Assembly (NCBI GenBank): GCA_964435035.1
Contig: CAYSXR010000002.1
Coordinates: 12,252-76,251, forward strand
DNA from: an uncultured Gammaproteobacteria bacterium
GTDB lineage: Bacteria > Patescibacteriota > Patescibacteriia > Magasanikbacterales > UBA922
Reading direction: 5' to 3'
Length of the DNA stretch: 64,000 nt
Part shown: one piece after another, positions 8,123 to 63,471 of the stretch
Layout: every line of letters begins with the position of its first letter
Position numbering within the stretch: the stretch's first letter is position 1
Translations under genes and position numbers: made by a program
The notes under the pieces: model-generated
Seen by the model: only the letters and a program-made list of their open reading frames with translations
Databases searched by the model: none
Told to the model about the DNA's origin: nothing

Positions 8123-8187
8123 TCCTCATCTAGAGAGTAATACGCCATGCTTGTCTGTATAACTCTCGCAGGCTCTCAAATCTATAT

Positions 8188-9901: not shown

Positions 9902-9910
9902 TTCATATAC

Positions 9911-9940
9911 TTAAAAACTCCTTAATTAAAAGGAGTTTTT
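9911..9940 (+). terminator. Terminator after the ftsL-like gene
   Basis: AAAAACTCCTTAATTAAAAGGAGTTTTTT. Confidence 0.7.
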
Positions 9941-10075: not shown

Positions 10076-10130
10076 TTAATTCCATGTACGTGTGATTATA
10101 TGCTATACTATTGTACATTAGCTTTATATT

Positions 10131-10481: not shown

Positions 10482-10490
10482 TTATTCTGT

Positions 10491-13262: not shown

Positions 13263-13268
13263 TGAATT

Positions 13269-14333: not shown

Positions 14334-14417
14334 TTACGCAGATTAATATGGATTTAAACAGATTGGATATGATTTTTTCAGTCTAAATCCGTTTTAATCT
14401 GTTTAAATCAATGTTGT
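14333..14417. repeat. Palindromic leader element (CATTGATT...AATCTG arms) ending in TAATCTGTTTAAATCAATGTT directly 5' of the start codon
   Basis: The same 21-nt 3' end recurs at 26711-26731 before rfbB. Contains GGATTTA/TAAATCCGT words related to the ACGGAT family. Confidence 0.7.
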
Positions 14418-14888
14418 ATGAAAGAAAAGAAACCAATAAAGAAAGTGGGAAAGTGGTTTATCTTTGCTTTTTTTGGGGCTGCCTTATTCTTGTTTGCCTG
14501 GAATAGACTTTATTGGCCGAAAGCCACTCTTGATGTAGGAGGTACAACGATTCGAGTGCTTGTGGCAAAGTCTATGTACCAGCAATATCGCGGCTTGGGT
14601 AAACGCGATACGATTGAGCCCTATGATGGTATGATATTTCCATTTTTGCTTTATGGGAGGCATGCAATTGTAATGCGGGATATGCGTTTTTCCCTTGATA
14701 TTGTGTGGCTCCGAGATGGGGTAGTCGCAGATTTAGCTCAGAATGTGCCACTTGAACCAGATGCTCGAGAAGGTGAATTTATGATTTATCGTCCACGAGC
14801 TGATGCAAATGCTGTTTTGGAGCTTCCTACAGGTAGGGCAGCAGAGCTTGGAATCACGATTGGGGCGGAGATTGGGCAGATTCGATAG
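14418..14888 (+). CDS. DUF192 (COG1430) family protein
   Basis: N-terminal TM. Pattern RGLG..MIFPF..MRDMRFSLDIVWL is typical of DUF192. Confidence 0.55.
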   Translation: MKEKKPIKKVGKWFIFAFFGAALFLFAWNRLYWPKATLDVGGTTIRVLVAKSMYQQYRGLGKRDTIEPYDGMIFPFLLYGRHAIVMRDMRFSLDIVWLRDGVVADLAQNVPLEPDAREGEFMIYRPRADANAVLELPTGRAAELGITIGAEIGQIR

Positions 14889-14893
14889 GAGAA

Positions 14894-15000
14894 AGTTGTC
14901 TGGTTTCCTGGTTATCTAGTTGTCTGGTTTTAGAGGTTGTATTTTGACTATTTAGACTAGAAAACTAGACAACTAGTAAACTAGTAGACCAGCAAACTAA
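14894..15000. repeat. GTCTGGTT / CTAGTT word repeat forming a long inverted repeat
   Basis: GTTGTCTGGTTTCCTGGTTATCTAGTTGTCTGGTT ... AGACTAGAAAACTAGACAACTAGTAAACTAGTAGACCAGCAAAC. Confidence 0.75.
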
Positions 15001-15002
15001 GA

Positions 15003-15037
15003 CACTTGACTTTTCCCCCTCTATCAGCTATAGTATC
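15003..15037 (+). promoter_or_regulatory. Sigma70-like promoter upstream of rplU (TTGACT-17-TATAGT)
   Basis: Near-consensus -35 and -10 hexamers with a 17-bp spacer, about 50 nt upstream of the rplU ATG. Confidence 0.5.
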
Positions 15038-15083
15038 CCTGTTTCCCAAAACATTTATTAAAAATCTTAGTTATTTATTCCGT

Positions 15084-15395
15084 ATGTTTGCAGTGATTCA
15101 AACCGGTGGAAAACAGTATCTGGTGAAGGCCGGAGATGTTATCAGAGTTGAAAAAATTGAGCTTGAAAATGGTCAAGAAGCAGTATTTGATAAAGTACTT
15201 CTCACTGCTGATGAAAATGGTGAAAATGTCGTATTCGGCAAGCCATACATTGATGGTGTGAGTATCCGAGCCACTGTTGAAGAACAGGGGCGACATGCGA
15301 AAGTTCGTGTAGTTAAATACAAACGCAAAGTTCGCTATAAGAGAACTATTGGACACAGACAAGCGTTTACCAAAGTAAAAATTTCAAAAGTGTAA
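15084..15395 (+). CDS. rplU: 50S ribosomal protein L21
   Basis: MFAVIQTGGKQYLVKAGDVIRVEKI is the bL21 signature. No rpmA follows it. Confidence 0.9.
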   Translation: MFAVIQTGGKQYLVKAGDVIRVEKIELENGQEAVFDKVLLTADENGENVVFGKPYIDGVSIRATVEEQGRHAKVRVVKYKRKVRYKRTIGHRQAFTKVKISKV

Positions 15396-50107: not shown

Positions 50108-50134
50108 TAAAAGAAGCTCCTAATAGGAGCTTCT
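50108..50134. terminator. Bidirectional terminator between island D and elp3
   Basis: AAAAGAAGCTCCTAATAGGAGCTTCTT. Confidence 0.6.
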
Positions 50135-51807
50135 TATGTTATTTCTTTAATCATGTACGTTCCTTCTTTTTTGTAGCCAAGCTTTTCATAATATCCCCGT
50201 ACACCTACTCCGGAAATTACGGCAAGTTTTTTTACGTTATTTTTTTTGGTAATGCGTTCAGCCTCGGCCATTAATTTTTTTCCATATCCTTTGTGCTGAC
50301 TACCGATTGTTTTTGTCTTTCCAATTCCAATCATTTGTCCGTATACATGGAGTTCACGGATGAATGCGCTTCCTTTGATTTCGGGCATGAGGGTGTGCAG
50401 GGTTTCTAGTTGTCTGGTTTTCTGGTTGTCTGGTTCGTGAGGAATGCGGAGACGAAGAAAACCGTAGACTGCGATACGATTTTTATCTTCCATTGAAATA
50501 AAGTATTCGGTCCCTCCAATAGTTTCGTAGGTGTCTACGAAAACGTGTGGTTCAGCGTCTGGATCTATCTTGTCTTTTTGGCGATAAATCTCTCGGCAAC
50601 GCAAACACTCGCAATGTTTTCCTTCTTTTTTGAGTTGGTACTCGAGCATTTCACGGAGGTTGGTGATGATATTTCCATTTTCAATTTCTGTTGCAGGAAT
50701 ATCTCGAATAAGTCGGGAAATACGGCAATAGCGTGGAGTTGCAAGTTTCATTTCGAGTAATGCCCGGAACAATCCTTCATCTCCATATGATTTGTAACGA
50801 CCATCTAAGAACCATTGGTATAATTCTGCTGATTTAATTACGGTGTTTGGATAAATCTTAATCATGTCTGGACGAAGTCCTAAATCTGAAAAGATTTCTT
50901 TATACATTTCAATATCATGTTCAGGTGTGGTTCCAGGTAAATCTGGCATGAAGTGTAAATCCACTTTGAATCCCGCTTCGCGAAGCAAATAAATTGCGTC
51001 ACGGAATTGTTGTACCGTATGTCCTCGATTGATCAGCTTTAAAATAGTATCATCAGTTGCTTGAAGTCCGAGTTCAATTCGCGTACAACCTTGTAAACGC
51101 ATGTGATGAATAGATTTCGGTGAAATTGCATCGGGTCTGGTTTCAAGGGTCAAGCCAATAATACGATGTCCGGTTGATTCATTGATGGTTTGTTCCATAT
51201 CTAATGCAGCTTGTAGGTCAGCAATAGATTTGTCATTCCAATATTCTTCAGGTGTGGGACCTATAGGTACTTCTCGATTGAAGTCATTGCAAGCTTTAAA
51301 GGATTCGAGAATAAACCAATATTGGTATTTGAGAGGGTAGGCATTCCAGGTTCCACCTTTTAATATGTATTCAATTTTGTCTGTTGGGTGTCCGTTCAAT
51401 TCAAGCATTTCAAGACGTTTTTTCATTTGCTCGTACGGACTAAAATCAAGTCTGAGAGCTCGTGCTGCTGCTGGTTCGGTGGCAATATAGCTTTTTGGCA
51501 TTCTAAGTTCGGTAGGGCAGTAAATGCATTTACCGGGGCAGGTATAGGGTTTTACCAGAGAGGTAATTATTACTACTCCAGAGAGTGTTCGCACATTTGC
51601 TTTGCGTAGGAAAAATTCCATCTGTTCGTCGGGTAGAATACTTTTCTTTTCAATAAGACTCTGGTAGGCTATGAGCAGTGCCTGATTTGCAGGCTGTCGA
51701 ATATTTAGCTTCGAAGCACCACGACGTTTTGCATCGTCAAAATCGTCCTTGGTTAGAGGCTTGTCGTCGACAATATATTTCATTAGTTTTTCAGCGATTT
51801 CGTTCAT
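50134..51807 (-). CDS. elp3: Elp3-family radical-SAM/GNAT protein (tRNA uridine-34 modification acetyltransferase homolog)
   Basis: Radical SAM core (CPGKCIYCP) and C-terminal GNAT domain (HKGYGKKLMAEAERI). 557 aa. Confidence 0.85.
   Translation of the reverse strand: MNEIAEKLMKYIVDDKPLTKDDFDDAKRRGASKLNIRQPANQALLIAYQSLIEKKSILPDEQMEFFLRKANVRTLSGVVIITSLVKPYTCPGKCIYCPTELRMPKSYIATEPAAARALRLDFSPYEQMKKRLEMLELNGHPTDKIEYILKGGTWNAYPLKYQYWFILESFKACNDFNREVPIGPTPEEYWNDKSIADLQAALDMEQTINESTGHRIIGLTLETRPDAISPKSIHHMRLQGCTRIELGLQATDDTILKLINRGHTVQQFRDAIYLLREAGFKVDLHFMPDLPGTTPEHDIEMYKEIFSDLGLRPDMIKIYPNTVIKSAELYQWFLDGRYKSYGDEGLFRALLEMKLATPRYCRISRLIRDIPATEIENGNIITNLREMLEYQLKKEGKHCECLRCREIYRQKDKIDPDAEPHVFVDTYETIGGTEYFISMEDKNRIAVYGFLRLRIPHEPDNQKTRQLETLHTLMPEIKGSAFIRELHVYGQMIGIGKTKTIGSQHKGYGKKLMAEAERITKKNNVKKLAVISGVGVRGYYEKLGYKKEGTYMIKEIT
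50401..50437. repeat. GTCTGGTT / CTAGTT word repeat copy embedded in-frame in the elp3 coding region
   Basis: GGTTTCTAGTTGTCTGGTTTTCTGGTTGTCTGGTT encodes the HEPDNQKTRQLET insert on the minus strand. Confidence 0.7.
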
Positions 51808-51921: not shown

Positions 51922-53061
51922 ATGCAAAATAACAATTTCATTTCCCAAAATAAAGACGTCTATAATACTATTGCTTCGTATTTTTCTAGTACCCGTCAAT
52001 TTGTCTGGGAAGATTTAAAGGATTTTTCCCAGTATATCACGAAGGAAGACACGGTTCTTGATATTGGCTGTGGGAACGGTAGAGTATATCAATTATGCGA
52101 GAATTTGCAAGTAGCTTACACTGGAATTGATCAGAGTGAAGAGCTCATCGCGATTGCTAAAAATAAGTATCCGACAGTTCATTTTGATGTAGGGGAGATG
52201 ACTGAGCTTCCATACGAGGATGCCTCTTTTTCTATAATTATTTGTGTTGCAACTTTTAATCATTTACCTGATCGTGATTCACGATTGAAATCACTTGGTG
52301 AGATGAAGCGGGTACTCAAACCTGGTGGAATAATTCTCATGACGAATTGGAATGTATTATCAGATAATGCACAGAAGTACATTGATCGTGAAAAATGGAA
52401 AATTGTAGATAATAATAGACAAGATGTATTAGTGCCATGGATGACGCCGGTTGGTGAAAAAATGCCGGGTGATCGGTATTATCATGGGTATGAGTTATCG
52501 GAATTATTTGAATTATTTACGGATATTGGGTTTATTGTCGAGCAACAATATTATGCAAAAAAAGGGAAGCGAAGTAATAAACATCAAGGGCATAATATGG
52601 TAAGTATCGTACGGAATAAGTGGACCGGTGTGCCTTCTGCTGGGGGAGTGGTAGTGCGAAAAGAGGGTGATAAATATGTAGTGGCACTTGAACGCGATAC
52701 TGCATTGGAAAAATCCGACTACTGGTTTATTCCCAAGGGGCACCTGGATTCAGGAGAAACATTGGAAGAAGCTGCACGAAGAGAAATTAGTGAGGAAGTT
52801 GGAATTTTAGAATTGGAATATGAATGTTTTCTGATGAAAAGTGAACGAAAGTCGTTTGTCGGGGATGAGTGGAAGAATATGTATTATTTTTTGTATATCA
52901 CAAAACAAATTGAATTAAAACCAAAGCTATTGTCAGGAGAGAGACATCATGAAGCTAAATGGGTAGATTTGTTTCAAAAGGAACCTATATCTTCGTTTGA
53001 GGAGCAAGAAAACGTTTTTAAATTGGTACGGACTTATATTGACGCGCGTAAGATTTCTTGA
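51922..53061 (+). CDS. Fusion protein: class I SAM methyltransferase (N-terminal) plus Nudix hydrolase (C-terminal)
   Basis: VLDIGCGNGRV and VLKPGGIIL MTase motifs, then Nudix box GHLDSGETLEEAARREISEEVG. Confidence 0.7.
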   Translation: MQNNNFISQNKDVYNTIASYFSSTRQFVWEDLKDFSQYITKEDTVLDIGCGNGRVYQLCENLQVAYTGIDQSEELIAIAKNKYPTVHFDVGEMTELPYEDASFSIIICVATFNHLPDRDSRLKSLGEMKRVLKPGGIILMTNWNVLSDNAQKYIDREKWKIVDNNRQDVLVPWMTPVGEKMPGDRYYHGYELSELFELFTDIGFIVEQQYYAKKGKRSNKHQGHNMVSIVRNKWTGVPSAGGVVVRKEGDKYVVALERDTALEKSDYWFIPKGHLDSGETLEEAARREISEEVGILELEYECFLMKSERKSFVGDEWKNMYYFLYITKQIELKPKLLSGERHHEAKWVDLFQKEPISSFEEQENVFKLVRTYIDARKIS

Positions 53062-53086
53062 CGCTTTTGTGCATTTGCATTAGAGT
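53058..53086 (+). promoter_or_regulatory. Sigma70-like promoter TTGACG-17-TAGAGT for the island E gene
   Basis: Hexamers with an exact 17-bp spacer. They overlap the stop codon of the upstream gene. Confidence 0.45.
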
Positions 53087-53140
53087 ACATCCGGTTTCTT
53101 TCATGACTGGGTTTGTTCCATCACCAAGGAGGTGTGGTGT

Positions 53141-53428
53141 ATGCGGAGCTACCGATTGTTTACTGAAGCGGTCAAGAAAATCATCCCCGATGTCGAGCTG
53201 CATACAGCTCTTGATGCTCAGCAGGAGACGATCGTCGATAGCCTCCTCCCTCAGAATGTGGATGATGTTCCGATCGAGGTCATCATTTTGTATCTCGAAG
53301 GTGGTAGACATGGCGCGCTCCTCAAAAGGCTCAAAGGAGCTGAAGCTGTGCGTGTGCTCTTCGAGGAGTGGAAACATGGCAAGTGGAGCGACTGGGTCAG
53401 GGTGGGGGCGAGGCGCGAGGGTAGATGA
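53141..53428 (+). CDS. Hypothetical small protein (95 aa) in high-GC island E
   Basis: RBS CACCAAGGAGG 8 nt upstream of the ATG. Hairpin ACGTAGGGT..ACCCTACGT downstream. Confidence 0.4.
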   Translation: MRSYRLFTEAVKKIIPDVELHTALDAQQETIVDSLLPQNVDDVPIEVIILYLEGGRHGALLKRLKGAEAVRVLFEEWKHGKWSDWVRVGARREGR

Positions 53429-53495
53429 AAGAGCGGGAGCAGCGCCAGGTGAGTAATTAATGAAGGAAGCACGTAGGGTGTGGATTCCCCATACC

Positions 53496-54383
53496 CTACG
53501 TTCCTGTAATCAGGCATGCGACCGACCCATCGAATTTCCATCCTTTGTCTAGAGCTTTTTGCAGTCCTGCGATTGATAGGGCAGAGTTTGGGGAGACTAA
53601 AATTTCACAGGTGTCCTCGGTGAGTTTGATTGCAGATTGAATTTTCTCATCGCTTACAATCCAACCAGATCCCTTGGATTTTTTTATTATGTCGATTACT
53701 TTTTCTTTTCGGTGAGCCACATTGTCGACAATTGCACTAGCGAGTGATGTTTCTGTATGGGTAAATTCTGTATCAAAATATTCGGCCATAGGGTGACAAT
53801 GTTCGGTTTGTACAATATGAATTTGTGGTTTTGGTTCTGATAGTTTTTCAAATTCAAGTCCTAGTGCTTGTGCAGTGGTTCCTGAAGATGTGGGAATGAA
53901 AATGGCGGACAAATTTGGAATGTGAGCGAGTTCTTTTGCGAGTTCAAAGTATCCCTCGAGTGCGAGGTCATCAGTTGATTGTCGGAGATTCAATGCGGTT
54001 CCTGTTTTGTGCATGTGAAGTGCTTCTTTTTTTGGTCGTTCGGTTTGTATAATCGTAATATGTGCATCTTCTTCTTTTTCTGTTTCAAGAATTATGAGTT
54101 TTTTTGGTTGTATTTTTTGTCCGACAAATACCGTGAGTTTGAGTGGGGTTTCAGTATTGTTTCGATTATGTGATCGTACATACTTTATTGCAGAGAGCGC
54201 TGCATTTCCAGATGATGAAATAACAAAAGACGTTTTATTTTCTTTTTGCACATAATGCTCAATCATGTGGGGAATTGAACGTCCCTTGTGCGATCCAAAC
54301 GCGTGTAGATCTTCACGTTTGAGGTACACTTCAACCCCGAACATGTCGTTTAGATTTTGATATGATTGTTGAGTAGTTTTCAT
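53496..54383 (-). CDS. PLP-dependent enzyme of the tryptophan-synthase-beta (fold type II) superfamily
   Basis: LKREDLHAFGSHKGRS lysine motif. Start moved to the internal ATG at 54383 so that it does not overlap the divergent promoter. Confidence 0.55.
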   Translation of the reverse strand: MKTTQQSYQNLNDMFGVEVYLKREDLHAFGSHKGRSIPHMIEHYVQKENKTSFVISSSGNAALSAIKYVRSHNRNNTETPLKLTVFVGQKIQPKKLIILETEKEEDAHITIIQTERPKKEALHMHKTGTALNLRQSTDDLALEGYFELAKELAHIPNLSAIFIPTSSGTTAQALGLEFEKLSEPKPQIHIVQTEHCHPMAEYFDTEFTHTETSLASAIVDNVAHRKEKVIDIIKKSKGSGWIVSDEKIQSAIKLTEDTCEILVSPNSALSIAGLQKALDKGWKFDGSVACLITGT

Positions 54384-54389
54384 ACATTT

Positions 54390-54418
54390 TTGACTATGGG
54401 AAAATATCGTGTTATAGT
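54390..54418 (+). promoter_or_regulatory. Sigma70-like promoter TTGACT-17-TATAGT reading toward the LysW-like micro-ORF
   Basis: Near-consensus hexamers with a 17-bp spacer. Confidence 0.45.
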
Positions 54419-54502
54419 TTTTCTTGCGCATATACTTTGCGCAACTTTATTTTAGTCCTGCCCCTGCTCAAGCTGTGGCAGACGATGTAAACACTACCAT
54501 GT

Positions 54503-54664
54503 ATGAGACTTATCTGTCCAGAATGTAAAAATGAAGTCGATATTTCAACATTCCCTAATCTTGCTATTGATCAGGTACTTGAGTGTGATACCTGTGGAAT
54601 TACACTTGTGGTGATTGATGTGGGCGACGAAGTATTTGCCGAAATTGTTGATGAGGGGAAATAA
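54503..54664 (+). CDS. LysW-like zinc-ribbon micro-protein (53 aa)
   Basis: MRLICPECKNEVDISTFPNLAIDQVLECDTCGITLVVIDVGDEVFAEIVDEGK: CPxC...CDTCG pattern and acidic tail. Not in the supplied ORF track because it is under 60 aa. Confidence 0.4.
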   Translation: MRLICPECKNEVDISTFPNLAIDQVLECDTCGITLVVIDVGDEVFAEIVDEGK

Positions 54665-54679
54665 ATTAGTTATTGCATT

Positions 54680-55035
54680 ACGTCATCCCCGCGAAAGCGG
54701 GGATCTTGTGTAATAGGAGGGGTATGGAATATTTTTTTGTGTATATTTTAGCTAGTAAAAAGTGCGGTGTTTTGTATATTGGAGTTACGAATGATCTAAC
54801 GCGTAGGGTTCAGGAATATAAAGCAGGAATTATTGAGGGGTTTACAAAAAAGTATTTTGTACACAAACTAGTATATTTTGAAACGTATACTTTTATTTTA
54901 GAAGCGATTAAACGAGAAAAGCAGCTTAAGAAATGGAATAGAGAGTGGAAGATAGGCTTAATAGAAAAGCAAAATCCAAATTGGTTAGACTTAGCTTCAG
55001 AGGAAAAAAGATCCCCGCTTTCGCGGGGATGACGT
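54680..55035 (+). mobile_element. GIY-YIG nuclease gene bounded by perfect 28-bp terminal inverted repeats (candidate miniature mobile cassette)
   Basis: TIR-L at 54680-54707 is ACGTCATCCCCGCGAAAGCGGGGATCTT. TIR-R at 55008-55035 is its exact reverse complement. Each TIR is itself a hairpin. Confidence 0.5.
54724..55032 (+). CDS. GIY-YIG nuclease superfamily protein
   Basis: YFFVYILASKKCGVLYIGVTNDLTRRVQEH-like GIY-YIG motif. RBS TAGGAGGGG. C-terminal codons overlap the right TIR. Confidence 0.7.
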   Translation: MEYFFVYILASKKCGVLYIGVTNDLTRRVQEYKAGIIEGFTKKYFVHKLVYFETYTFILEAIKREKQLKKWNREWKIGLIEKQNPNWLDLASEEKRSPLSRG

Positions 55036-55078: not shown

Positions 55079-55627
55079 TCACTCAAATAGCATTTTTTTG
55101 AATTCGTCCAGTTTTCCTTGGTAATGAAGTTTGAGAATATCAAGTGTGAGATCTTTTGAACGGAAATCCGGATGCATGAGTATTTCCATGAATTCATCGA
55201 ATGATACTAGACGTGTTCTGATACGTTCACCAGGATCTAGGCGTTGTTCGGTGACTTTTGTACAATTTTTTGCAATAAAACATGAAATAGTCCAGTCCAT
55301 TTTATTGTATAGGTTTCGTTCACGATATAATTTCCAGTGTTCTGCGGTATACCCGGTTTCCTCGAGCATTTCACGTTTGGCTCCCTCAAGTGCACTTTCA
55401 CCTTCGTTAATTACTCCACCGATGAGGCCAATACGTTTTGAAATGGTTGGTTGTTCCTCCTCTGCAACCATGATTTTATCTCCCATAATCGGTAGTACTT
55501 GTACGCTTCCGAGCCGTGTAAGTCCTTCGAATGTTTCAGTCGTTCCATCAAACATTTCTTGTTCCCATTGATATACATCAAAGATTTTTCCTTTGAATAC
55601 TTTTTTTGCATGTTTGGGTATGGACAT
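55079..55627 (-). CDS. Nudix hydrolase
   Basis: Nudix box GGVINEGESALEGAKREMLEETG. Confidence 0.8.
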   Translation of the reverse strand: MSIPKHAKKVFKGKIFDVYQWEQEMFDGTTETFEGLTRLGSVQVLPIMGDKIMVAEEEQPTISKRIGLIGGVINEGESALEGAKREMLEETGYTAEHWKLYRERNLYNKMDWTISCFIAKNCTKVTEQRLDPGERIRTRLVSFDEFMEILMHPDFRSKDLTLDILKLHYQGKLDEFKKMLFE

Positions 55628-55628
55628 A

Positions 55629-57005
55629 TTATTTTTTTATTCTCTCCACCAGTTCTTCTATCATACCACGAAATCCGTGGCTTCCGAGAAATGCAATCGT
55701 GTCTCCTTTTTTTGCCATTTCAGAAAGTTTTGTAATCAAATTACCATCATTATCGAGATATTCAACATTGCGATGGGTTTCCCCAATTACATTTACAAGC
55801 TCTGCTCCATCGAGTGGGGTTTCTGAGTTTTTATCTGTTTTGATTACGGTAAGTCGGGGGATAATCACTATATCTGCATCTTTGAACGCATGATCGTATC
55901 CTTTTGCAGCACTTGGCTGTCGGTTTCCCGTGTTTGGTTCGAATAGTGCAATTACTTTACCTTTCGTTATTTTTCGAACGGTAGAAAGTGCTGAACTTGC
56001 TTTTGCAGGGGAGTGAGCAATATCATCAATGATAGTAATATCTCCTTTCAGTCTTTTTTCCATGCGACGCTTGAGTCCTTGGTGATTGGCTATACTTTTG
56101 ATAATTGAGTTTACTTCGACTCCAATTGTGTGTGCGAGTGCAAAACAGCCAGTAATATTTTCCGCTTGATACTCACTGAGAAATGGAGATTGAATATTGA
56201 ATACTGAATGTTGATTTTTTATTTTGAATGTCATGCCTGTTGTTGAAGTTTTTACCTCAAAAAATTGGTAGTCATTATGCTCGCTTAGTCCATAACTCAC
56301 GGTTTTGCATAATGCGTGTTTTGCATAGTCGTGCGCACGTTCAGAAATTACTAAGAGACCGTTTGCTGGCAGTGACAAAATTAATGTTTCAAAAGTTTCA
56401 AAATATTTTTGTTCAGTTGGGTAGATATCAGCATGATCCCATTCAACTGCGGTTAATAATAAATGTGTTGGATCATAGTGTGCGAATTTGGGGCTATTGT
56501 CCCATCGTGCAGTTTTGTATTCATCACCTTCGAGTACATTCCATATACCACTTCCAATTACGGCTGAAGGTATCTCATCAATACTTAATCCTCCAAACAT
56601 GTAGCTTGGATCATAGTTTGCATCAGTAAGAATCTGCGATAGGAGTGCTGCTGAACTCGTTTTGCCGTATGTGCCAGCACAGACAATAGAGTTTTCTTTG
56701 AGAAAAAACTTTTTGATTAATTCTGGATAGGAGACGTAAGGTATTTTATTCTCTTGTACAAAAATCCATTCTGGATTAGTAGAGGCTGCAACATTTCCTA
56801 CGACCACGAGATCAGGATTTCCATTTGAGCACATTTTGGTAGGATGCCATCCTGGATAGTAGGGGACGTCATTATTTTTTAGATATGTTGAAATAGGAGG
56901 AAAGAATCCTTTGTCACTACCTGTCACGTTGTGCCCAGCTTTTTTGAGCGCGAGTGCGAGACCTCCCATGGCTACGCCGCAAATTCCGATAAAGTGGATT
57001 TTCAT
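55629..57005 (-). CDS. Mur ligase family protein, Mpl/MurC-like
   Basis: N-terminus IHFIGICGVAMGGLALALKKAGHNVTGSD..FFPPIS is close to Mpl. Mur ligase middle domain (GTYGKTS) and C-terminal domain. Confidence 0.8.
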   Translation of the reverse strand: MKIHFIGICGVAMGGLALALKKAGHNVTGSDKGFFPPISTYLKNNDVPYYPGWHPTKMCSNGNPDLVVVGNVAASTNPEWIFVQENKIPYVSYPELIKKFFLKENSIVCAGTYGKTSSAALLSQILTDANYDPSYMFGGLSIDEIPSAVIGSGIWNVLEGDEYKTARWDNSPKFAHYDPTHLLLTAVEWDHADIYPTEQKYFETFETLILSLPANGLLVISERAHDYAKHALCKTVSYGLSEHNDYQFFEVKTSTTGMTFKIKNQHSVFNIQSPFLSEYQAENITGCFALAHTIGVEVNSIIKSIANHQGLKRRMEKRLKGDITIIDDIAHSPAKASSALSTVRKITKGKVIALFEPNTGNRQPSAAKGYDHAFKDADIVIIPRLTVIKTDKNSETPLDGAELVNVIGETHRNVEYLDNDGNLITKLSEMAKKGDTIAFLGSHGFRGMIEELVERIKK

Positions 57006-57709
57006 ACGCTTAAAATTTTCTTTAACTCATCAACATTAGTATTCCATTTCTCCCCATCAAACCATTCAGCTCCGGAAAATTGGAATTTGTAGGTATCAGT
57101 AGGACGTTGTGCTGAGCCTAGGTACACATATTTTTTTCCAGTATCTTTCGCCCATACAATTGCCTTCGTCATCATACCGATACCGATATTGGTAAATTGA
57201 CTTACGTTTGTAAGTTCGTAGAATGGGTATGAGTAATGCAGAATGTCTTTATTGGTATAACAAATTGCGTAGCCGAGTGTTGATACTTCACTCTGATTGG
57301 TTGTAACGACCCTCTCTAACTCCCCCTTGTAGGGGGAGGAATATTCGAGAAGCAGATTAAAGTTGCGATTATCCGCGTCGGTCAGCAATTCTTTTACTTT
57401 GTTTGCGCTAAAGGTGCCGTCACCAAATTTGGTGGTATAAAAATCTTTGGCAAGTTTGCCAATTGACCAGTGGTAGTCGGAATAGGGAAGGGGAATGGTA
57501 ACCAGTGTGATTTCATCTGTCTTTTTGAGCACACGTCGATTTTCGCTTGATAATTCAAATTTTGATAAATCAATTCGTACACTGCGTGTCTGATCCATCT
57601 CACCTTTGCCTCTGCGTGTAAAAACAAAACCATCAGCGTACATTTTACTGATGTTCTCTGAGGAAAAATCGGTGATTGTTTGTTTTTTCCAGCTTAAGTA
57701 GTTTGACAT
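57002..57709 (-). CDS. Arginyl/leucyl-tRNA-protein transferase (Ate/Bpt) family protein
   Basis: ATE_N-like GFVFTRRG, then ATE_C-like SENRRVLKK...EYS...YVYLGS...KFQF..EW. Start moved to the ATG at 57709 because the longer ORF reads through an intergenic repeat. Confidence 0.6.
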   Translation of the reverse strand: MSNYLSWKKQTITDFSSENISKMYADGFVFTRRGKGEMDQTRSVRIDLSKFELSSENRRVLKKTDEITLVTIPLPYSDYHWSIGKLAKDFYTTKFGDGTFSANKVKELLTDADNRNFNLLLEYSSPYKGELERVVTTNQSEVSTLGYAICYTNKDILHYSYPFYELTNVSQFTNIGIGMMTKAIVWAKDTGKKYVYLGSAQRPTDTYKFQFSGAEWFDGEKWNTNVDELKKILSV

Positions 57710-57775
57710 AGAATAGAACACGGATGACACGGATTTAACGGATTGGGACGGATTATATTTATTATTGATCTTGTT
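57710..57775. repeat. ACGGAT-word element, copy 4 (single arm)
   Basis: TAGAATAGAACACGGATGACACGGATTTAACGGATTGGGACGGATT, abutting the start codon at 57709. Confidence 0.8.
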
Positions 57776-57795
57776 ATGTTTACCCAATCAGTATG

Positions 57796-58197
57796 CTATT
57801 TAATTTTTGTTTTTTGAGTGTGAAATCTTTTTTCCATCCATCGGTAGATTCCAATAAATGCGCCCGTGCTTAGTATTGTAAAGAATGCCACCACTATATT
57901 GAATTCTGAGAAAAAAGCAGCAACGATTCCTCCAATCATGAGAATGTAGCTCCATGTTTTCATCTGCATTGCAGCAAAAAACATATTTGCGGCAGGGTCG
58001 GAGAGATGCCAGTATCGGTCGACGAGGAGGATGCTAACTCCAAAAATGAATATCCACATTGGTACTAGCATCGCACCGAGTGTTTCTTCGGGTATCGATG
58101 AACCGAATACTGCAAATGCGATGATTGCCCATACAAATGAAATGCCGAATGCGATTGCGCCTGCATAAAGCGCCTTTAGTCTAAACCAGATTAACAT
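57796..58197 (-). CDS. Small polytopic membrane protein
   Basis: Four predicted TM helices. Confidence 0.45.
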   Translation of the reverse strand: MLIWFRLKALYAGAIAFGISFVWAIIAFAVFGSSIPEETLGAMLVPMWIFIFGVSILLVDRYWHLSDPAANMFFAAMQMKTWSYILMIGGIVAAFFSEFNIVVAFFTILSTGAFIGIYRWMEKRFHTQKTKIK

Positions 58198-58239
58198 ATG
58201 GTATACTTAGAATACTTAATTTTTTAAATTGTGTAATCT

Positions 58240-58419
58240 ATGGAAGAAAAACCAGTTGCACCTTCGAGTAAAACTCGTTTGGTGTTCAGTATCATAGTAC
58301 TTGCGGTCGGTCTTATCATGCTTGGTACTATGGAAGCGAAGCAATGGGCTTGGGTCGTGACGGTGGTCGGCGCATTGTCGATTATGTACAACGTGTTTAT
58401 GATGAAAAAAGGGAAATAG
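58240..58419 (+). CDS. Small membrane protein (59 aa, 2 TM), hypothetical
   Basis: ATG-initiated ORF with two hydrophobic helices, followed by hairpin terminator AAAAATACGTACGTACTGTACGTATTTTTT. Confidence 0.3.
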   Translation: MEEKPVAPSSKTRLVFSIIVLAVGLIMLGTMEAKQWAWVVTVVGALSIMYNVFMMKKGK

Positions 58420-58464
58420 CCTTTTTTGTCTTTCGAAAAATACGTACGTACTGTACGTATTTTT

Positions 58465-59595
58465 TTAATATAATGCAATCCAGAGACCAAGTAGTACCAT
58501 CCCTGAATGCACGATCCAGAATCGCATTACGGTCTTTTCCTCGCTCCATCCGCGAATTTCAAAATGGTGATGGATGGGTGCCATAGAGAAAATGCGACGA
58601 CCAAGTGTGTGTCTGCCGATGATTTGAATCACGACGCTTATAAGTTCAGCAAAGAAGATAAATCCGAATAATGGGAGGAGGAGCATGTGATTGATGACAA
58701 TCGTATTGATCGCAAGGAGTGCTCCCAGTCCGAGTGAACCTACATCTCCCATCTGGAAACGTGCAGGTTTGATATTGAAATAGGTATATGCAATGAGTGC
58801 TCCTGCAACCATAGTATTTAGAATTGCAATTTCTTGGTAGCCCTGGAGCCAGCTTAGTACGCCGAGTGTTGAGAAGGTGACTAAGAGAGATCCTCCTGCA
58901 AGACCGTCCATTCCATCAGCTACGTTTACAGCATTTGCCGTAAACATAACAAAGAAAATAATAAGCGGAATAATCCAGATGCCGATATTTACAAATCCAT
59001 CAAATGGAATATGAATTTCTCTCCAGGTTTCGCCGAGTTTGAAATATACCCACCATGCGGTGATAGCACCTGCGATAAACTGCAATAATAATTTTTCATG
59101 TACATGAATACCACGACCTGGGTGTCTCGAGAGCCAGACTGAGGTGCGTTTGAACAGTGACCAGGGGAGTGTGATTGTATACCACACACGCATTTTCCAG
59201 TCATGGTGTACGTGAATGAGGCGGAATACTTGGCTTAGTTTTCTACTGCGACGTTTTTGTCCATAGATATTCATCACATCATCAATTCCTCCAAGGAGGG
59301 CTGACAAAAGCATTACTCCAATTGGTACCCAGGTGTATTTTCTCTCCCAATTAAAAATCATGGTAAGTATGGCGACCGTGACAATGACCAATAGGCCTCC
59401 CATCACGGGGACACCGGCTTTTCCTTTGCGAGCGCCCATCGCTAGGGTTGCGTCGTATTCGGGGCGTCGGGTGAGTTTGTATCGGTAGAGAATTTTGGTA
59501 AGCAGAGGTGCCCAAGCAAATGCGGCAAGGCAAGAGAGAAGTCCATAGCCTATGATGGAGCGTAGGAGATCGAGAGAAGATTCAGGAATTACCAT
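58465..59595 (-). CDS. mraY: Phospho-N-acetylmuramoyl-pentapeptide transferase
   Basis: Ten TM helices and MraY motifs NAVNVADGMDGLAGG and HHH. Confidence 0.85.
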   Translation of the reverse strand: MVIPESSLDLLRSIIGYGLLSCLAAFAWAPLLTKILYRYKLTRRPEYDATLAMGARKGKAGVPVMGGLLVIVTVAILTMIFNWERKYTWVPIGVMLLSALLGGIDDVMNIYGQKRRSRKLSQVFRLIHVHHDWKMRVWYTITLPWSLFKRTSVWLSRHPGRGIHVHEKLLLQFIAGAITAWWVYFKLGETWREIHIPFDGFVNIGIWIIPLIIFFVMFTANAVNVADGMDGLAGGSLLVTFSTLGVLSWLQGYQEIAILNTMVAGALIAYTYFNIKPARFQMGDVGSLGLGALLAINTIVINHMLLLPLFGFIFFAELISVVIQIIGRHTLGRRIFSMAPIHHHFEIRGWSEEKTVMRFWIVHSGMVLLGLWIALY

Positions 59596-59700
59596 AGTTT
59601 GTTAGTTTGTAGTCAGTAGAGAAAGCCAATGGTTGGTATAAAAAGAATGGCTTATTTAAGCCACTCCAGTCTACTGCAAAATAAGGAAAAATTCAAGTTA

Positions 59701-60360
59701 TTACGTATCTTTGATTTTTCTTCTTAGTTCATTGATATTTCTGAGGTCATTACCCATAATATTTTCTCTGGAAACTACGCCGGTTTGATCTACTGGCTGT
59801 TCTACCATTTTCATTACACATTCAATGAGGCAGTCTCGTAATCCTTGGCTACTCTCAGGTGAGATTTGATCTGGTGTAATTCCACGTTCTTTCATTGCTT
59901 GTTCAAGTGTTTCTTCGGTTATAATACCCTTGAATATATCTCTTTGAGCTTTTGGTGTGCCATATTCTTTTACTACTCCTTTAATAAAAGATAGTATTTC
60001 ATCAATTGTCAGGTTGTTTTCAGGGTCTTTTCCGATTTGTATTCTTTGTACTTGAGCCTCTTTGAGGAGATAGAGATGATCGTTTAGATCTTCAAAATTG
60101 TTTTTGTCGAATAGCTTGTCTATGGTGCGTACTGCGTGATCGAGTTCCTCAGTATGTACTGATTCTTGTTCCAATGTTGCACGGCGTATTTTTAATTTTT
60201 CTATTTCACGGTCTATTGCCTCTATGTCACTGTCTATTTCAAGAAGGTCTTTTTCAAAAGAGGATTGTATTTGTGTGTATGCAGATCTGTTTTCAGAGCC
60301 TACTGTTTGTCGTTTTTCTGCTGAACCACCCCAGAACGGACCTTTTTTAGATTCTGTCAT
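59701..60360 (-). CDS. Hypothetical coiled-coil protein
   Basis: Charged heptad-rich sequence with no recognisable motif. Confidence 0.45.
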   Translation of the reverse strand: MTESKKGPFWGGSAEKRQTVGSENRSAYTQIQSSFEKDLLEIDSDIEAIDREIEKLKIRRATLEQESVHTEELDHAVRTIDKLFDKNNFEDLNDHLYLLKEAQVQRIQIGKDPENNLTIDEILSFIKGVVKEYGTPKAQRDIFKGIITEETLEQAMKERGITPDQISPESSQGLRDCLIECVMKMVEQPVDQTGVVSRENIMGNDLRNINELRRKIKDT

Positions 60361-60364
60361 ATGT

Positions 60365-61135
60365 TTAAAATTTATTGATACGCTTTATGATTACTGTATC
60401 AGCCGACTTAAGGTATGTCCATGTTTCATTTTTCTCACCATTCTTTCCATCCTCAGTCCATTTTTGTTCAAGAATAGTTCCGTTTGGCTTGGTAATTTCA
60501 ATTGTACCTCGTCTGATACCTTTGGTGTATTTTCCTTCGCTTTTCCAGGTATATGAATGTGCATATTCTAGTGACTGTACTTTTTCTGAGTCGTCACGAG
60601 TGACTGAGGTAATAATAATTACATGATTGTAGTCATGTTGGGGTCCTCCGCCAAGTGAGATTATCAAATCGCTTGGTCTCACCTCAGCGAGAGAAATTTC
60701 GGTGGAATTTTCATGAAGTGTAGTTACTCCAGTATTTTCCGTTGTTCTGATTTTTGCAATCATTCTTCGGAGTAGTCTTTTTGATTTGAATGACAGTATT
60801 TTTTTGAGTGTTTTTCCTTTGGATTGAAGTTCTGCATCAAGAATGTAGTATGCAAAAGCAGAACAATCAAGTCCGATATGATGTTCGGTTAGAAATTTTA
60901 CGAGATCGCCTTCATTTAATTCATCGAGTTCAAACTTATCTCGAAGCGAGAGAATGCGTGCTTCGTCAGCAATTTCCAGAGGAGTTCCTTTTCCTACCAG
61001 TACTCGAAGTGCTCCCCGGAGATTGGTTGTGCGATTGTTGAAATAGGGGCAATTGATTGTTTTGTTTCCAATTTTGAGGTGTTCGTATGAATCGATCACT
61101 GCGAGTGCTTGGTCTGAAAGTTTTTTTGTAATCAT
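60365..61135 (-). CDS. Cytoplasmic NlpC/P60-like (papain-fold Cys-His) domain protein
   Basis: GLDCSAFAYYIL (Cys nucleophile context) and DLIISLGGGPQHDYNHVIIITSV (His context). No signal peptide. Confidence 0.4.
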   Translation of the reverse strand: MITKKLSDQALAVIDSYEHLKIGNKTINCPYFNNRTTNLRGALRVLVGKGTPLEIADEARILSLRDKFELDELNEGDLVKFLTEHHIGLDCSAFAYYILDAELQSKGKTLKKILSFKSKRLLRRMIAKIRTTENTGVTTLHENSTEISLAEVRPSDLIISLGGGPQHDYNHVIIITSVTRDDSEKVQSLEYAHSYTWKSEGKYTKGIRRGTIEITKPNGTILEQKWTEDGKNGEKNETWTYLKSADTVIIKRINKF

Positions 61136-61139
61136 AATT

Positions 61140-61248
61140 GCATTAATCCGTGTAAACCCGTGTTATCCGTTAAATCCGCGTTCTATTAAGTGAATGTTAT
61201 AGAATAGCACACGGATGACACGGATTTAACGGATTGGGACGGATTTTT
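61140..61248. repeat. ACGGAT-word palindromic intergenic element, copy 5
   Basis: Both arms present. Abuts the NlpC/P60-like start (61135) and the ATP-grasp stop (61247). Confidence 0.85.
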
Positions 61249-62467
61249 ATATTGAAATAATATCCTTAATCTCTATTCCGACATCGGTAAACTCCCTATC
61301 AGTTTCAATAATGCTTGTGTCTGATTGTATTCGTAATAGATCGCTATTGTGTTCAGTGTTATTATATGGAATCACTTTGAAATTTTTCTCTGTTAGTTTT
61401 TTTGACGCTTCTTCAAGTTGTGTAACGGATGTTATCTTTTTTGTTACTCGTTGAATAATCTGTGCTCCGTTAGAAATTTTTACGAGAGTCACTTCGTCCA
61501 ATGGTTCACCAAGTAGTGCATTCACATGTGCTTCAAGAACGGTGAGCGTACTTTCGTCTTTTTTAATCTTATTCTGTAGTTCGCTTTCGTGCGAAGTACT
61601 TGCTGGCTGACGTGCATTGATTTCTATCAGATACCATCGGCTTTCTTTGGTACTCCAGATTGCGTCGATTCCAAATAATCCGACCCAACCAAGGTTACGA
61701 AGTGTATTAGCCACCTCTCGTGCTATGAGATCATACGAAGTGCGTTCTGATTCATTTAATATGCGATAGGGAGCTCCCCAGTCATTTCCAATAGTAGCAA
61801 ATGCACTGTCAGTGAATGGTTTTATTCCCGTAATCTGATAGCTGATATTTCCAGTGAGTGTGGTGTCTTGTGCAACTACAATATTACTTGTAAACACCGG
61901 TCCTTCAATAAGTGGTGCAATTCGTGATTCACGTTTTGGAAATTGATTTTTTAGTTCATCTAATTTTTCTGCTGCATCAATAATCATTGTTCCACTTCCC
62001 GTGTGAGAATGATTAAATTGAAGTACAAAAGGTGTGTCTAGCCATTGAATTTCTTCAATTCTTTTTTTCTCATATCGGGGCATGAGTTCGCTTAATTTTT
62101 CAAGTGTGGTGAGCTGTGTAATTTTTTCTTCAAGCGAAGCTGCTAATTTTGATGCAGGATTTAGAAGCGTATATTCCATTTTTTTACACCATTTTTCTAT
62201 GAGCGATGTATTTTTGAATACAAGGATTTTTGGTGAGTCAAATGTGCTCAAAAGCTTTTCGGTTTCTTCATGAGCTAGTAGCTCGTGAGTATCAAGTGTA
62301 TTCGGGCTATCTATAAGGTGTATGCGGTCAGGGTATGCATTCTGAACTGACTTGGCAAACGGTGTTTCATTTGAGATAATGAAAATAGACGGAATGGTAA
62401 GGCATCCGATAGCGCGTTCGATGTCACGAGTGATATAGATGATTGTATTTTTGCCAACTTTTTTCAT
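61247..62467 (-). CDS. ATP-grasp domain protein (peptide/D-Ala-D-Ala-ligase-like)
   Basis: C-terminal ATP-grasp signature GLFGIDAIWSTKESRWYLIEINARQ. Unknown 190-aa N-terminal domain. Confidence 0.6.
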   Translation of the reverse strand: MKKVGKNTIIYITRDIERAIGCLTIPSIFIISNETPFAKSVQNAYPDRIHLIDSPNTLDTHELLAHEETEKLLSTFDSPKILVFKNTSLIEKWCKKMEYTLLNPASKLAASLEEKITQLTTLEKLSELMPRYEKKRIEEIQWLDTPFVLQFNHSHTGSGTMIIDAAEKLDELKNQFPKRESRIAPLIEGPVFTSNIVVAQDTTLTGNISYQITGIKPFTDSAFATIGNDWGAPYRILNESERTSYDLIAREVANTLRNLGWVGLFGIDAIWSTKESRWYLIEINARQPASTSHESELQNKIKKDESTLTVLEAHVNALLGEPLDEVTLVKISNGAQIIQRVTKKITSVTQLEEASKKLTEKNFKVIPYNNTEHNSDLLRIQSDTSIIETDREFTDVGIEIKDIISI

Positions 62468-62502: not shown

Positions 62503-63471
62503 TTGCAACGTATGGAAGCACTCGCACCAAAATTGAAACAGTACGGAAAAGTAAAAATAAGTGAACCATTATTCAAACATACGTCATTTAAAATTGGTGG
62601 GTCAGCTCGATTTTTTGTGTCTCCTGAAACACTAGAGAGTCATGTGGAACTGATGCAGTACCTCGATGGTATTGGAGTCTCATATGTGATTCTTGGTGGG
62701 GGGAGTAATATGCTTGCGCCAGATACTGGTTTTGACGGCGTGGTCATTCACCCTGAATACCAAGAAATTAAACGTGAAGGGTCCAAAGTTATTGCAGATG
62801 CCGGAGCGCTCACCGTGTCCGTTGCGCGATTTTCTATGAAAGAACAATTGACTGGTTTTGAGTGGGGAGTTGGGGTGCCTGGTACCATCGGTGGTGCGGT
62901 TCGCGGAAATGCAGGTGCGATGGGATTTGAAATGAAAGATTCGGTAACAAAAGTAACCATGTACCAAGATGGAGAAGTGATGGATTTTAATATTGAACAA
63001 TGTGCTTTTGAGTATCGATCAAGTATTTTTAAACGTAAAGGTGGAGTAGTCTTGCAAGTTACACTTGAGTTGGAACAAACAGAAAATAAAGAACTAATCA
63101 AACATGCACTTGAGTATCTTAATTACCGAAATTCTACTCAGCCTCAAGGCCATGCTTCGACTGGATGTATCTTCCAAAATCCTGATGTTGGTAAATACCG
63201 TCCTCAGTTAGTTGAGCATTTTGATAAATATAGCGAGCATGTACAGAAATTTCTATCACTGGGCAAGATCTCCGCGGGTTGGCTTATTGAACAAGCGGGG
63301 TTGAAAGGTGAACAGGTGGGGCAAGCACTGGTTTCTGAACAACATGGTAATTTTATTGTGAATTTAGGAGGTGCCACTTCTCACGATGTACGCACTCTTA
63401 TTGATAGAATCAAAGAAACGGTCTATACTAAATTTGGGATCACACTTGAGGAGGAAATATACACTTTTTAG
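62503..63471 (+). CDS. murB: UDP-N-acetylenolpyruvoylglucosamine reductase
   Basis: FAD-binding region (FKIGGSARFFV, ILGGGSN) and MurB C-terminal domain. Confidence 0.9.
   Translation: MQRMEALAPKLKQYGKVKISEPLFKHTSFKIGGSARFFVSPETLESHVELMQYLDGIGVSYVILGGGSNMLAPDTGFDGVVIHPEYQEIKREGSKVIADAGALTVSVARFSMKEQLTGFEWGVGVPGTIGGAVRGNAGAMGFEMKDSVTKVTMYQDGEVMDFNIEQCAFEYRSSIFKRKGGVVLQVTLELEQTENKELIKHALEYLNYRNSTQPQGHASTGCIFQNPDVGKYRPQLVEHFDKYSEHVQKFLSLGKISAGWLIEQAGLKGEQVGQALVSEQHGNFIVNLGGATSHDVRTLIDRIKETVYTKFGITLEEEIYTF

Follow-up and report, generated by a model that had tools for sequence, protein, structure and literature searches.

An ATE/Bpt-like aminoacyl-tRNA transferase homologue encoded among the peptidoglycan precursor genes of Candidate Phyla Radiation bacteria

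Branching of peptidoglycan by transfer RNA (tRNA)-dependent enzymes is well known. To our knowledge, such decoration has so far been found only with the Fem/MurM enzymes of Gram-positive bacteria, and the ATE/Bpt enzymes have been described only as modifiers of protein N-termini. Bacteria of the Candidate Phyla Radiation (CPR) account for a large part of bacterial diversity and rely on a host for amino acids; as far as we know, their wall chemistry is essentially unmeasured. The kinship of ATE1 and the Fem enzymes is reported as established (Rai et al. 2006, as cited in PMC9351520). An ATE/Bpt-like protein encoded between mraY and a MurC/Mpl-like ligase gene was analyzed in a 64,000-nt stretch of DNA (the window; contig CAYSXR010000002.1 of assembly GCA_964435035.1, 12,252-76,251 of the forward strand). 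Coordinates are window positions, and genes were called from a list of open reading frames (ORFs) together with Pfam and NCBIfam profile scans of the window. A sequence-only reading, made earlier without database searches, had suggested that this protein may modify the peptidoglycan stem peptide in a tRNA-dependent way. A CPR-wide ATE/Bpt-like clade located in mur and division and cell wall (dcw) genes, with a co-inherited set of partners, appears to be undescribed; full-text literature searches found no paper tying ATE/Bpt-like proteins to CPR peptidoglycan.

The window protein matched the NCBIfam arginyltransferase model PRK01305 with 39.7 bits (cut-off 267, E ~3e-10 to 4e-10) and Pfam ATE_C with 17.1 bits (gathering cut-off 25, E 0.009). 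A profile census was performed on 69 family members from three clades, with Pfam matches counted at E <= 0.1. All 69 members matched NCBIfam arginyltransferase models (best E 8.8e-18) and 66 matched ATE_C (best E 3e-10), the cut-off of which was passed by some Microgenomates members (30-36 bits). No match to FemAB (PF02388), to Aat (Leu_Phe_trans and the NCBIfam aat model) or to the ATE_N domain was found in any of the 69, and twelve also matched the generic GNAT family Acetyltransf_6. The assignment to ATE/Bpt made in the sequence-only reading was thereby borne out at the superfamily level. The members scored 130-230 bits under the curated Bpt cut-offs. No Cys is present in residues 1-149 of the window protein, and the CGYC and CC motifs, which in ATE1 bind an Fe-S cluster (10.1101/2022.07.20.500667), are missing. 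The ATE_N domain of Ate1 and Bpt carries conserved Cys motifs and an acidic-residue pocket (PMC9351520). With scores far under the cut-offs and neither an ATE_N domain nor the Cys motifs, the protein cannot be counted as a true Bpt or ATE1. It falls outside Bpt/ATE1 proper but within the Fem-like GNAT superfamily, in its ATE/Bpt branch. The current labels of such proteins, "arginyltransferase" and "GNAT N-acetyltransferase", are probably misleading.

Clustering at 90% identity gave 1,986 clusters of the window type and 246 of a second type. Just 464 clusters at 50% identity with E <= 1e-3 were found among 1.84 billion proteins, and the family is therefore regarded as compact and distinct from canonical Bpt. 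A tblastn search of plasmids for canonical Bpt gave no match. When the ATE-like family was used in profile searches of the PDB sequences, entries for ATE1, Fem or Aat were not retrieved, and the GNAT and HAD matches that did appear were at chance level. One homologue of 809 aa (P0262) is fused to a PPDK_N (ATP-grasp-like) domain and a phosphoenolpyruvate-utilising mobile domain, which is a further tie of the transferase family to ATP-dependent activating domains.

An AlphaFold2 model of the ATE-like protein was built from 31 sequences, with a predicted local distance difference test score (pLDDT) of 90.4 and a predicted TM-score (pTM) of 0.88. The model was compared with the PDB using Foldseek, and the top 50 matches were inspected. 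All 50 were aminoacyl-tRNA transferases. The best match was human ATE1 (8tzv, E 1e-7, TM-score on the query (TMq) 0.67), and the yeast and Kluyveromyces lactis Ate1 structures gave TMq values of 0.52-0.67. Lysyl- and alanyl-phosphatidylglycerol synthases, L/F-transferase and FemX were also among the matches, the FemX structures of Weissella (4ii9, 1ne9 and 7z5y) with E 4e-6 to 1e-5 and TMq ~0.5. Ten residues were invariant in the 69 sequences of the three clades, namely Tyr4, Gly27, Arg42, Arg45, Arg59, Gly146, Gly198, Lys208, Glu215 and Trp222, and Tyr207 was nearly invariant (>=90% of the sequences). Tyr207-Lys208 coincides with the position of the Y-K motif in the ATE_C match. Tyr303-Lys304 of K. 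lactis Ate1 is essential, and the Lys is common to FemX (Lys305) and the aminoacyl-phosphatidylglycerol synthases (PMC9351520).

Since Bpt and ATE1 are nearest by both sequence and fold, and homologues are labelled arginyl- or leucyl-tRNA protein transferases by JGI, a protein substrate was considered. The enzyme would then be a Bpt-like N-terminal transferase acting in an N-degron pathway or on a specific envelope protein, possibly the small co-inherited LysW-like protein with its invariant C-terminus, and its location among mur genes would reflect co-regulation with growth. Such a substrate is unlikely. The domain that holds the acidic-residue pocket in Ate1 and Bpt is the one not detected in the 69 members, the scores lie well below those required for Bpt, and no ClpS-like gene is found beside the Clp ATPase of the window. 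Furthermore, the genes conserved around the ATE-like gene encode enzymes of peptidoglycan precursor synthesis in three CPR lineages and an alanine racemase in a fourth clade. An ORF upstream of the Clp ATPase (10131-10481) was tried as ClpS and rejected, as it encodes a membrane protein.

The gene neighbourhood was studied in one genome per GTDB species. A relative of the ATE-like protein was present in 361 genomes, and the best 80 loci, almost all from Magasanikbacteria, were analyzed. Neighbours were located by tblastn with the window proteins, and only loci with enough flank were counted. mraY was found no more than 1.5 kb upstream of the ATE-like gene in 69 of 71 Magasanikbacteria loci, and a MurC-like ligase gene no more than 3.2 kb downstream in 67 of 67. 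The LysW-like and pyridoxal phosphate (PLP)-dependent PALP genes came next in 62/64 loci, the ATP-grasp and NlpC/P60-like genes upstream in 50/58, murB in 38/52 and the Nudix gene in about one third. The NlpC/P60-like, ATP-grasp, LysW-like and PLP-enzyme genes are co-inherited with the ATE-like gene. The arrangement exceeds chance, as it is kept in dozens of species-level genomes with locus proteins sharing just 35-60% identity. The gap from mraY to the ATE-like gene was at most 20 bp in about 30 of 76 loci, and the gap from the ATE-like gene to the ligase gene at most 30 bp in about 34 of 69. Gaps of 20-30 bp or less, or overlaps, were seen in roughly half of the loci. Gene order was retained despite GIY-YIG or methyltransferase genes inserted at various places. 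Small GIY-YIG ORFs were found in the window (54673-55032 (+)) and in the related loci L004 (10770-11075) and L034 (~9656). Their site differs by genome, being after the LysW-like gene, between the ATE-like and ligase genes or between mraY and the ATE-like gene, and they look like mobile-element-type insertions that leave the gene order unbroken.

A second subfamily, from Microgenomates/Shapirobacteria, was found to be orthologous to the window type (hhalign probability 100, E 1.7e-55, 37% identity). It is encoded in a dcw cluster with the order mraZ-mraW-ftsL-ftsI-murE-ATE-murC-murB-murA-(ddl)-murF-mraY-NlpC/P60-like-LysW-like(-)-PALP(+). Counts were made on those of 33 loci of low guanine plus cytosine (GC) content, obtained in a metagenome scan, that had enough flank. 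murE was directly upstream of the ATE-like gene in 27 of 29 loci, murC directly downstream in 24 of 25, and an NlpC/P60-like gene followed mraY in 12 of 14. The order in a Woesebacteria-like locus was ftsI-murA-murE(full)-x-murE(short)-ATE-murC-like-NlpC/P60-like, and one Dojkabacteria locus had the order ATE-murC-pgeF-murB(-)-murA. The PgeF/YfiH-type (Cu-oxidase_4) gene of the latter (L177, 3355-4179) comes after the murC that directly follows the ATE-like gene; PgeF edits wrongly made UDP-MurNAc-amino acid products. Outside the CPR, a high-GC clade from soil and peat (L127-L175, e.g. L156 7823-9798 and L136 4039-5319, and also L094) encodes an ATE-like protein of about 40% identity in an operon ATP-grasp(GARS-like)-alanine racemase-ATE-like. 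In 21 of 35 loci the alanine racemase gene preceded the ATE-like gene on the same strand, mostly immediately and often with a 4-bp overlap, and the GARS-like ATP-grasp gene was further upstream in 12 loci. This is again a D-alanine/peptide-ligase context. The ATP-grasp protein of this clade was tried as a specific relative of the window ATP-grasp protein and rejected (hhalign E 0.054).

The linkage to mraY and murC proposed in the sequence-only reading is thus conserved across CPR lineages. In Magasanikbacteria the gene keeps its place between a Mur ligase and mraY; the tightest partner is the MurC/Mpl-like ligase, with murE in Microgenomates, rather than mraY. The proposal had been tied beforehand to the profile assignment and to linkage with mraY in related genomes, and it was not overturned, because the ATE/Bpt assignment holds and the linkage is conserved. 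The same data bear on mere hitch-hiking, in which an ancestral gene order would have been frozen and the protein would do something unrelated, for instance aminoacylate lipids or acylate small molecules. Some clades lack the mur linkage, aminoacyl-phosphatidylglycerol synthases are among the fold matches and some homologues also match generic GNAT families. However, the pairing has outlasted both the rearrangement that separates mraY-ATE-murC of Magasanikbacteria from murE-ATE-murC of Microgenomates and the repeated insertion of GIY-YIG or methyltransferase genes. Stop and start codons often overlap, an independent clade ties the gene to alanine racemase, and the ATE-like protein is without a membrane or flippase domain. 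Hitch-hiking was therefore considered improbable.

The homology, the fold, the conserved residues, the synteny and the fusions together point to an active transferase that depends on aminoacyl-tRNA and belongs to the ATE/Bpt branch, a branch that would have been recruited in CPR bacteria to peptidoglycan precursor synthesis for a Fem-like aminoacylation. This reading is tentative, with a probability of roughly 45%, and catalytic activity, donor amino acid, acceptor and stage are predicted. An aminoacyl-tRNA would be taken as the donor by the ATE-like enzyme, and its aminoacyl ester would be attacked by the free amine of a cytoplasmic precursor. The likeliest acceptor would be the amine of the position-3 diamino acid, added by MurE, on UDP-MurNAc-peptide or on lipid I/II. 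An acceptor produced by MurE would agree with the position of the ATE-like gene immediately behind murE. Tyr207-Lys208 would stabilise the intermediate in the manner of Ate1 Tyr303-Lys304 and FemX Phe304-Lys305. The product would be a branched or extended stem peptide, to be passed on to MraY and later enzymes. The ATP-grasp, cytoplasmic NlpC/P60-like and Nudix proteins would probably serve the same nucleotide-linked peptide by making, trimming or proof-reading one of its amide bonds.

Several observations weigh against this aminoacylation of a precursor. The ATE/Bpt enzymes known to us act on Asp or Glu at protein N-termini, not on peptidoglycan precursors. The short MurE of Microgenomates keeps the Arg of the DNPR motif (as EDPR), which hints at a wall of the diaminopimelic acid (DAP) type, and bridges are less common in DAP-type walls. 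The cluster has neither a tRNA gene of its own nor an RNA leader. tRNA genes were absent from the window, and none was conserved near the cluster in 47 loci; no Rfam family reached its gathering score in the window, and relaxed scans gave only chance-level matches in the mraY-ATE region and at 53062-53495. A Dojkabacteria paralogue and a Bacteroidota-like clade are not linked to mur genes, and CPR synteny could partly be a relic of a shared ancestral gene order. Lastly, Tyr207-Lys208 is a putative equivalent of the Ate1 Tyr-Lys pair by motif position, not by superposition.

The role of the ATE-like protein is more likely to be accessory than to be a wholesale replacement of Mur ligases. This is argued for by the genes that relatives carry beside the module. 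ftsI and murF were found there in the relatives L018, L038, L040 and L086, and in some Magasanikbacteria relatives the two are next to mraY. A divergent full-length MurD homologue is encoded just past the PALP gene in six Magasanikbacteria relatives (L059, L062, L023, L068, L028 and L049). The L059 protein (13772-15091 (-), 439 aa) has 22% identity to Escherichia coli MurD over its full length and the P-loop GAVGKAT. Such a divergent homologue falls below routine annotation thresholds and would be missed. The idea that murD is absent and that the module replaces MurD was weakened by this finding. An accessory role is also favoured because CPR peptidoglycan pathways are called essentially complete in the literature (PMC7143001).

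The nature of the adjacent ligase was studied with profiles and by BLASTP. The window ligase scored under both curated cut-offs, with 234.5 bits for TIGR01082 murC (cut-off 335) and 223.3 bits for TIGR01081 mpl (cut-off 389). By BLASTP it gave 192 bits with E. coli Mpl and 90 bits with E. coli MurC, and 71 of 71 CPR ligases were closer to Mpl than to MurC, a suggestive result obtained with E. coli references only. The MurE (401-421 aa) and MurF (401 aa) proteins of Microgenomates are without the N-terminal domain 1, which in E. coli MurE and MurF binds UDP, whereas the MurC/Mpl-like ligase retains it; an example of the short forms is found in L087 (6769-8004 and 13464-14669). Both a full-length (5436-6923) and a short MurE (7739-9004) are encoded in L176, and it is the short one that abuts the ATE-like gene. 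No murD was found in the Microgenomates dcw stretch.

These data would agree with a peptide-first or salvage pathway. An amino acid such as L-Ala, delivered by Ala-tRNA, would be joined by the ATE-like enzyme to a free alpha-amine, either that of D-Glu or that of gamma-D-Glu-diamino acid; this acceptor resembles the N-terminal Glu recognised by ATE/Bpt enzymes. The adjacent ligase would be Mpl-like and couple the preformed peptide to UDP-MurNAc, while the NlpC/P60-like and ATP-grasp proteins would trim or rebuild scavenged peptides. The ATE-like and MurC/Mpl-like ligase genes are the tightest conserved pair and often overlap, and a cytoplasmic NlpC/P60 enzyme, YkfC, occurs in murein-peptide recycling. 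The pathway is nevertheless rather unlikely. The NCBIfam profiles do not favour Mpl for the window ligase, nor for the L087 ligase (murC 260 against mpl 208), and the Mpl/MurC comparison depends on the E. coli references. The divergent MurD homologue beside the module and the presence of murA and murB also speak against it, as do CPR pathways that are called essentially complete (PMC7143001).

A bolder version is that the CPR stem peptide is partly assembled off the nucleotide, peptide-first and in a tRNA-dependent way. A MurE-like ligase without a UDP-binding domain would make a D-Glu-diamino-acid fragment, and the ATE/Bpt-like enzyme would put the N-terminal residue on that Glu from aminoacyl-tRNA. 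An Mpl-like ligase would then join the finished peptide to UDP-MurNAc, with building blocks supplied or edited by the products of the ATP-grasp, NlpC/P60-like, LysW-like and PLP-enzyme genes. Taken jointly, these steps are quite unlikely to be correct. If they were, they would represent a tRNA-dependent, peptide-first form of a pathway otherwise regarded as universal.

The partner proteins were characterized further. Cys91 (in G-[IV]-D-C-S), His171 and His193 of the NlpC/P60-like protein form a triad in canonical order that is invariant in 28 homologues from two CPR classes. Similarity to known profiles was low: CHAP gave 16.9 bits (cut-off 26), PDB profile matches had E 0.26 or worse, and the Cys motif aligned weakly with the catalytic motif of LytE. 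Neither a signal peptide nor an N-terminal hydrophobic segment was found in the protein. The Microgenomates orthologue encoded after mraY has 30% identity (E 1e-26). The structure of the ATP-grasp protein was predicted with AlphaFold2 from database homologues, and the fold was confirmed (pLDDT 93.1). Its top 50 Foldseek matches were PurK, PurT, PurD, biotin carboxylase and L-amino-acid ligases, and Ddl was absent from the 50. No Ddl match was obtained in the Pfam and NCBIfam scans, and an archaeal pseudomurein ATP-grasp model was matched weakly (E 6e-4). Canonical Ddl is also encoded in Microgenomates clusters. Assignment of the ATP-grasp protein as Ddl was dropped because of the generic fold matches and this co-occurrence.

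Fusions between ATP-grasp and NlpC/P60 domains were found in the loci L001/L016 (L001 6570-8456) and L075 (6045-8027) and in at least seven database proteins (P0426, P0435, P0440, P0455, P0476, P0500 and P0506). Fusions of ATP-grasp to Nudix domains were found in six proteins (P0467, P0489, P0492, P0497, P0501 and P0503), the Nudix domain of which is only weakly similar to that of the window (E 4e-4). These fusions link the ATP-grasp, NlpC/P60 and Nudix activities to a single process, which plausibly acts on a nucleotide-linked peptide. It had been suggested earlier that the NlpC/P60-like and ATP-grasp proteins edit or extend the same peptide as the transferase; the part of this idea that gained support, from the fusions, is that of one common substrate.

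The LysW-like protein was always encoded divergently from the threonine-synthase-like PLP enzyme and always beside the cell-wall module. An alignment of more than 70 copies showed a CPECK...EC..CG zinc ribbon and an invariant C-terminal DEGK, which is EEK in Microgenomates (e.g. L088 16376-16534 and L089 16414-16572). The PALP enzyme gave weak ThrC-type matches and is conserved beside the module in both Magasanikbacteria and Microgenomates. The pair may represent a carrier-protein system, or else it may lead to a diamino acid such as lanthionine. Extended to the whole module, the LysW-like protein, the PLP enzyme, the ATP-grasp protein and the ATE-like protein would make a non-canonical amino acid or dipeptide, for example a DAP or lanthionine substitute, for installation by a Mur ligase. 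LysW carrier systems use the ATP-grasp ligases LysX/ArgX, and in the Microgenomates loci L106 (E 1e-13) and L117 (E 2e-18) the PALP gene is followed by a homologue of the window ATP-grasp gene. The conservation of the pair and the invariant C-terminus of the LysW-like protein would also suit such a route, but it is very unlikely. The ATP-grasp protein has generic fold matches that do not resemble LysX/RimK, the C-terminal residue of the LysW-like protein is Lys whereas LysX uses Glu, and the kinase, reductase and aminotransferase genes of carrier-protein pathways are not nearby. The ligase gene lies between the ATE-like gene and the LysW-like/PALP pair, and in Microgenomates eight genes lie between.

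The features of the locus are listed in Table 1. The gene row and coordinates of the sequence-only reading, with eight minus-strand genes from ATP-grasp to Nudix and a divergent murB, were confirmed. The start of the ATE-like gene is probably ATG 57709, because homologues measure 215-245 aa. The row departs from one simple operon in several details. The ATE-like stop codon overlaps the ligase start codon (ATGA). A 268-bp gap containing an opposite-strand membrane ORF separates mraY from the 133-aa gene, and a terminator-like hairpin (59667-59644 (-)) lies between the coiled-coil gene and mraY. A second such hairpin (55030-55011) lies past the Nudix gene; the hairpin scan overall was not above chance. 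The 59-aa ORF in the gap has 69-86% protein identity in the three closest relatives (L008, L009 and L010). The coiled-coil and 133-aa genes were seen only in the closest relatives, the 133-aa homologue only in L010. The window MraY scored 176 bits with TIGR00445 (cut-off 192), in two stretches, and was matched by E. coli MraY in tblastn with E 2e-32. The only other GT4 protein of the window (13269-14333) is WecA-like.

Table 1. Features of the cell-wall module and its flanks in the window
Feature	Position (strand)	Evidence and remarks
PLP-dependent PALP enzyme, threonine-synthase-like	53496-54431 (-)	PF00291, E 2.8e-35; divergent from LysW-like gene
LysW-like zinc-ribbon protein	54503-54664 (+)	Zn_ribbon_LysW (Pfam, on homologues)
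Nudix hydrolase, end of operon	55079-55627 (-)	PF00293, E 4e-11; weak NudE-like match
MurC/Mpl-like UDP-MurNAc ligase	55629-57005 (-)	All three Mur ligase domains
Divergent ATE/Bpt-superfamily aminoacyl-tRNA transferase-like protein	57002-57709 (-)	235 aa from ATG 57709; ORF reaches TTG 57787
Lineage-specific 133-aa membrane protein	57796-58197 (-)	No family match
59-aa two-helix membrane ORF	58240-58419 (+)	Opposite strand, in gap between mraY and 133-aa gene
MraY (phospho-MurNAc-pentapeptide translocase)	58465-59595 (-)	PF00953, E 2.5e-27
Lineage-specific coiled-coil protein, 219 aa	59701-60360 (-)	Only sub-threshold profile matches, below gathering cut-offs
NlpC/P60-like cysteine hydrolase or transferase, cytoplasmic	60365-61135 (-)	CHAP, E 0.009
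ATP-grasp carboxylate-amine ligase	61247-62467 (-)	PF02655
murB, divergent	62503-63471 (+)	NF010480, 278 bits, above cut-off 259

Elsewhere in the window, mraZ-mraW-ftsL, murA, the WecA-like gene and a large glycosyltransferase cluster were found. No murD, murE, murF, murG, ddl, ftsW or penicillin-binding protein gene was found in the 64 kb. The dcw cluster at 8188-14333 is truncated: after the mraZ-mraW-ftsL-like genes come a membrane ORF, a ClpB/ClpC-like ATPase and the WecA-like GT4 protein in place of ftsI-murE-murF-mraY. Two further genes are conserved next to the module across many Magasanikbacteria loci. These encode a bacterial Elp3-type radical-SAM/GNAT tRNA-modification enzyme (50134-51807 (-), 514 bits) and a methyltransferase-Nudix fusion (51922-53061 (+)). 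The 434 bp between the latter and the PALP gene (53062-53495) hold overlapping ORFs on both strands and no convincing gene, and are not conserved in related loci.

Compared with known systems, the MurC/Mpl-type ligase co-encoded with a cytoplasmic NlpC/P60-type enzyme resembles murein recycling by Mpl with LdcA and YkfC, and the BLASTP scores favour E. coli Mpl. LdcA, AmpG or NagZ-type genes were not seen, however, profiles do not separate Mpl from MurC, and we know of no murein recycling pathway that includes a tRNA-dependent transferase. The ATP-grasp::NlpC/P60 fusions recall glutathionylspermidine synthetase/amidase in joining an amide-forming and an amide-cleaving domain in one protein; the domain order is reversed, and the likeness is one of architecture, not of sequence. 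Aat and the aminoacyl-phosphatidylglycerol synthases (C-terminal domain of MprF) share the superfamily and the type of donor with the ATE-like protein, at TMq 0.42-0.47, with a weak 0.42 for Aat. The ATE-like protein differs from them in having no profile match, no membrane domain, weaker structural similarity and other conserved motifs.

Bpt and ATE1 are closer, being the best sequence family in all 69 members and the best structural match, with a size near that of bacterial Bpt. The putative Y-K catalytic motif and a basic R/K-rich helix (S-S-E-N-R-R-x-L-K-K) are conserved in the ATE-like protein. It differs from them in its score of 39.7 bits against a cut-off of 267, the undetectable ATE_N domain, the missing CxxC/CC Fe-S cysteines, and its mur/dcw rather than Clp/N-degron context. 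FemABX and MurM, including FemX of Weissella viridescens and FemX/A/B of Staphylococcus aureus, differ by profile (FemAB in 0/69) and in size, the ATE-like protein being about 100 residues shorter than FemX. The residue before the catalytic Lys is Tyr, as in ATE1, and the TM-score with FemX (~0.5) is under that of ATE1. The Fem-like GNAT fold (FemX, E 4e-6), the catalytic Lys and the association with cell-wall genes are common to both, as would be the proposed reaction, in which a tRNA-borne amino acid is added to an amine of a peptidoglycan precursor. The module offers proteins that can be expressed, namely the transferase, the Mpl/MurC-like ligase, the ATP-grasp, NlpC/P60-like and LysW-like proteins and the PLP enzyme. 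If the proposed role is correct, the ATE-like family would stand beside the Fem enzymes as a second, independent enzyme lineage for tRNA-dependent wall chemistry, or would be part of a non-canonical stem-peptide route.

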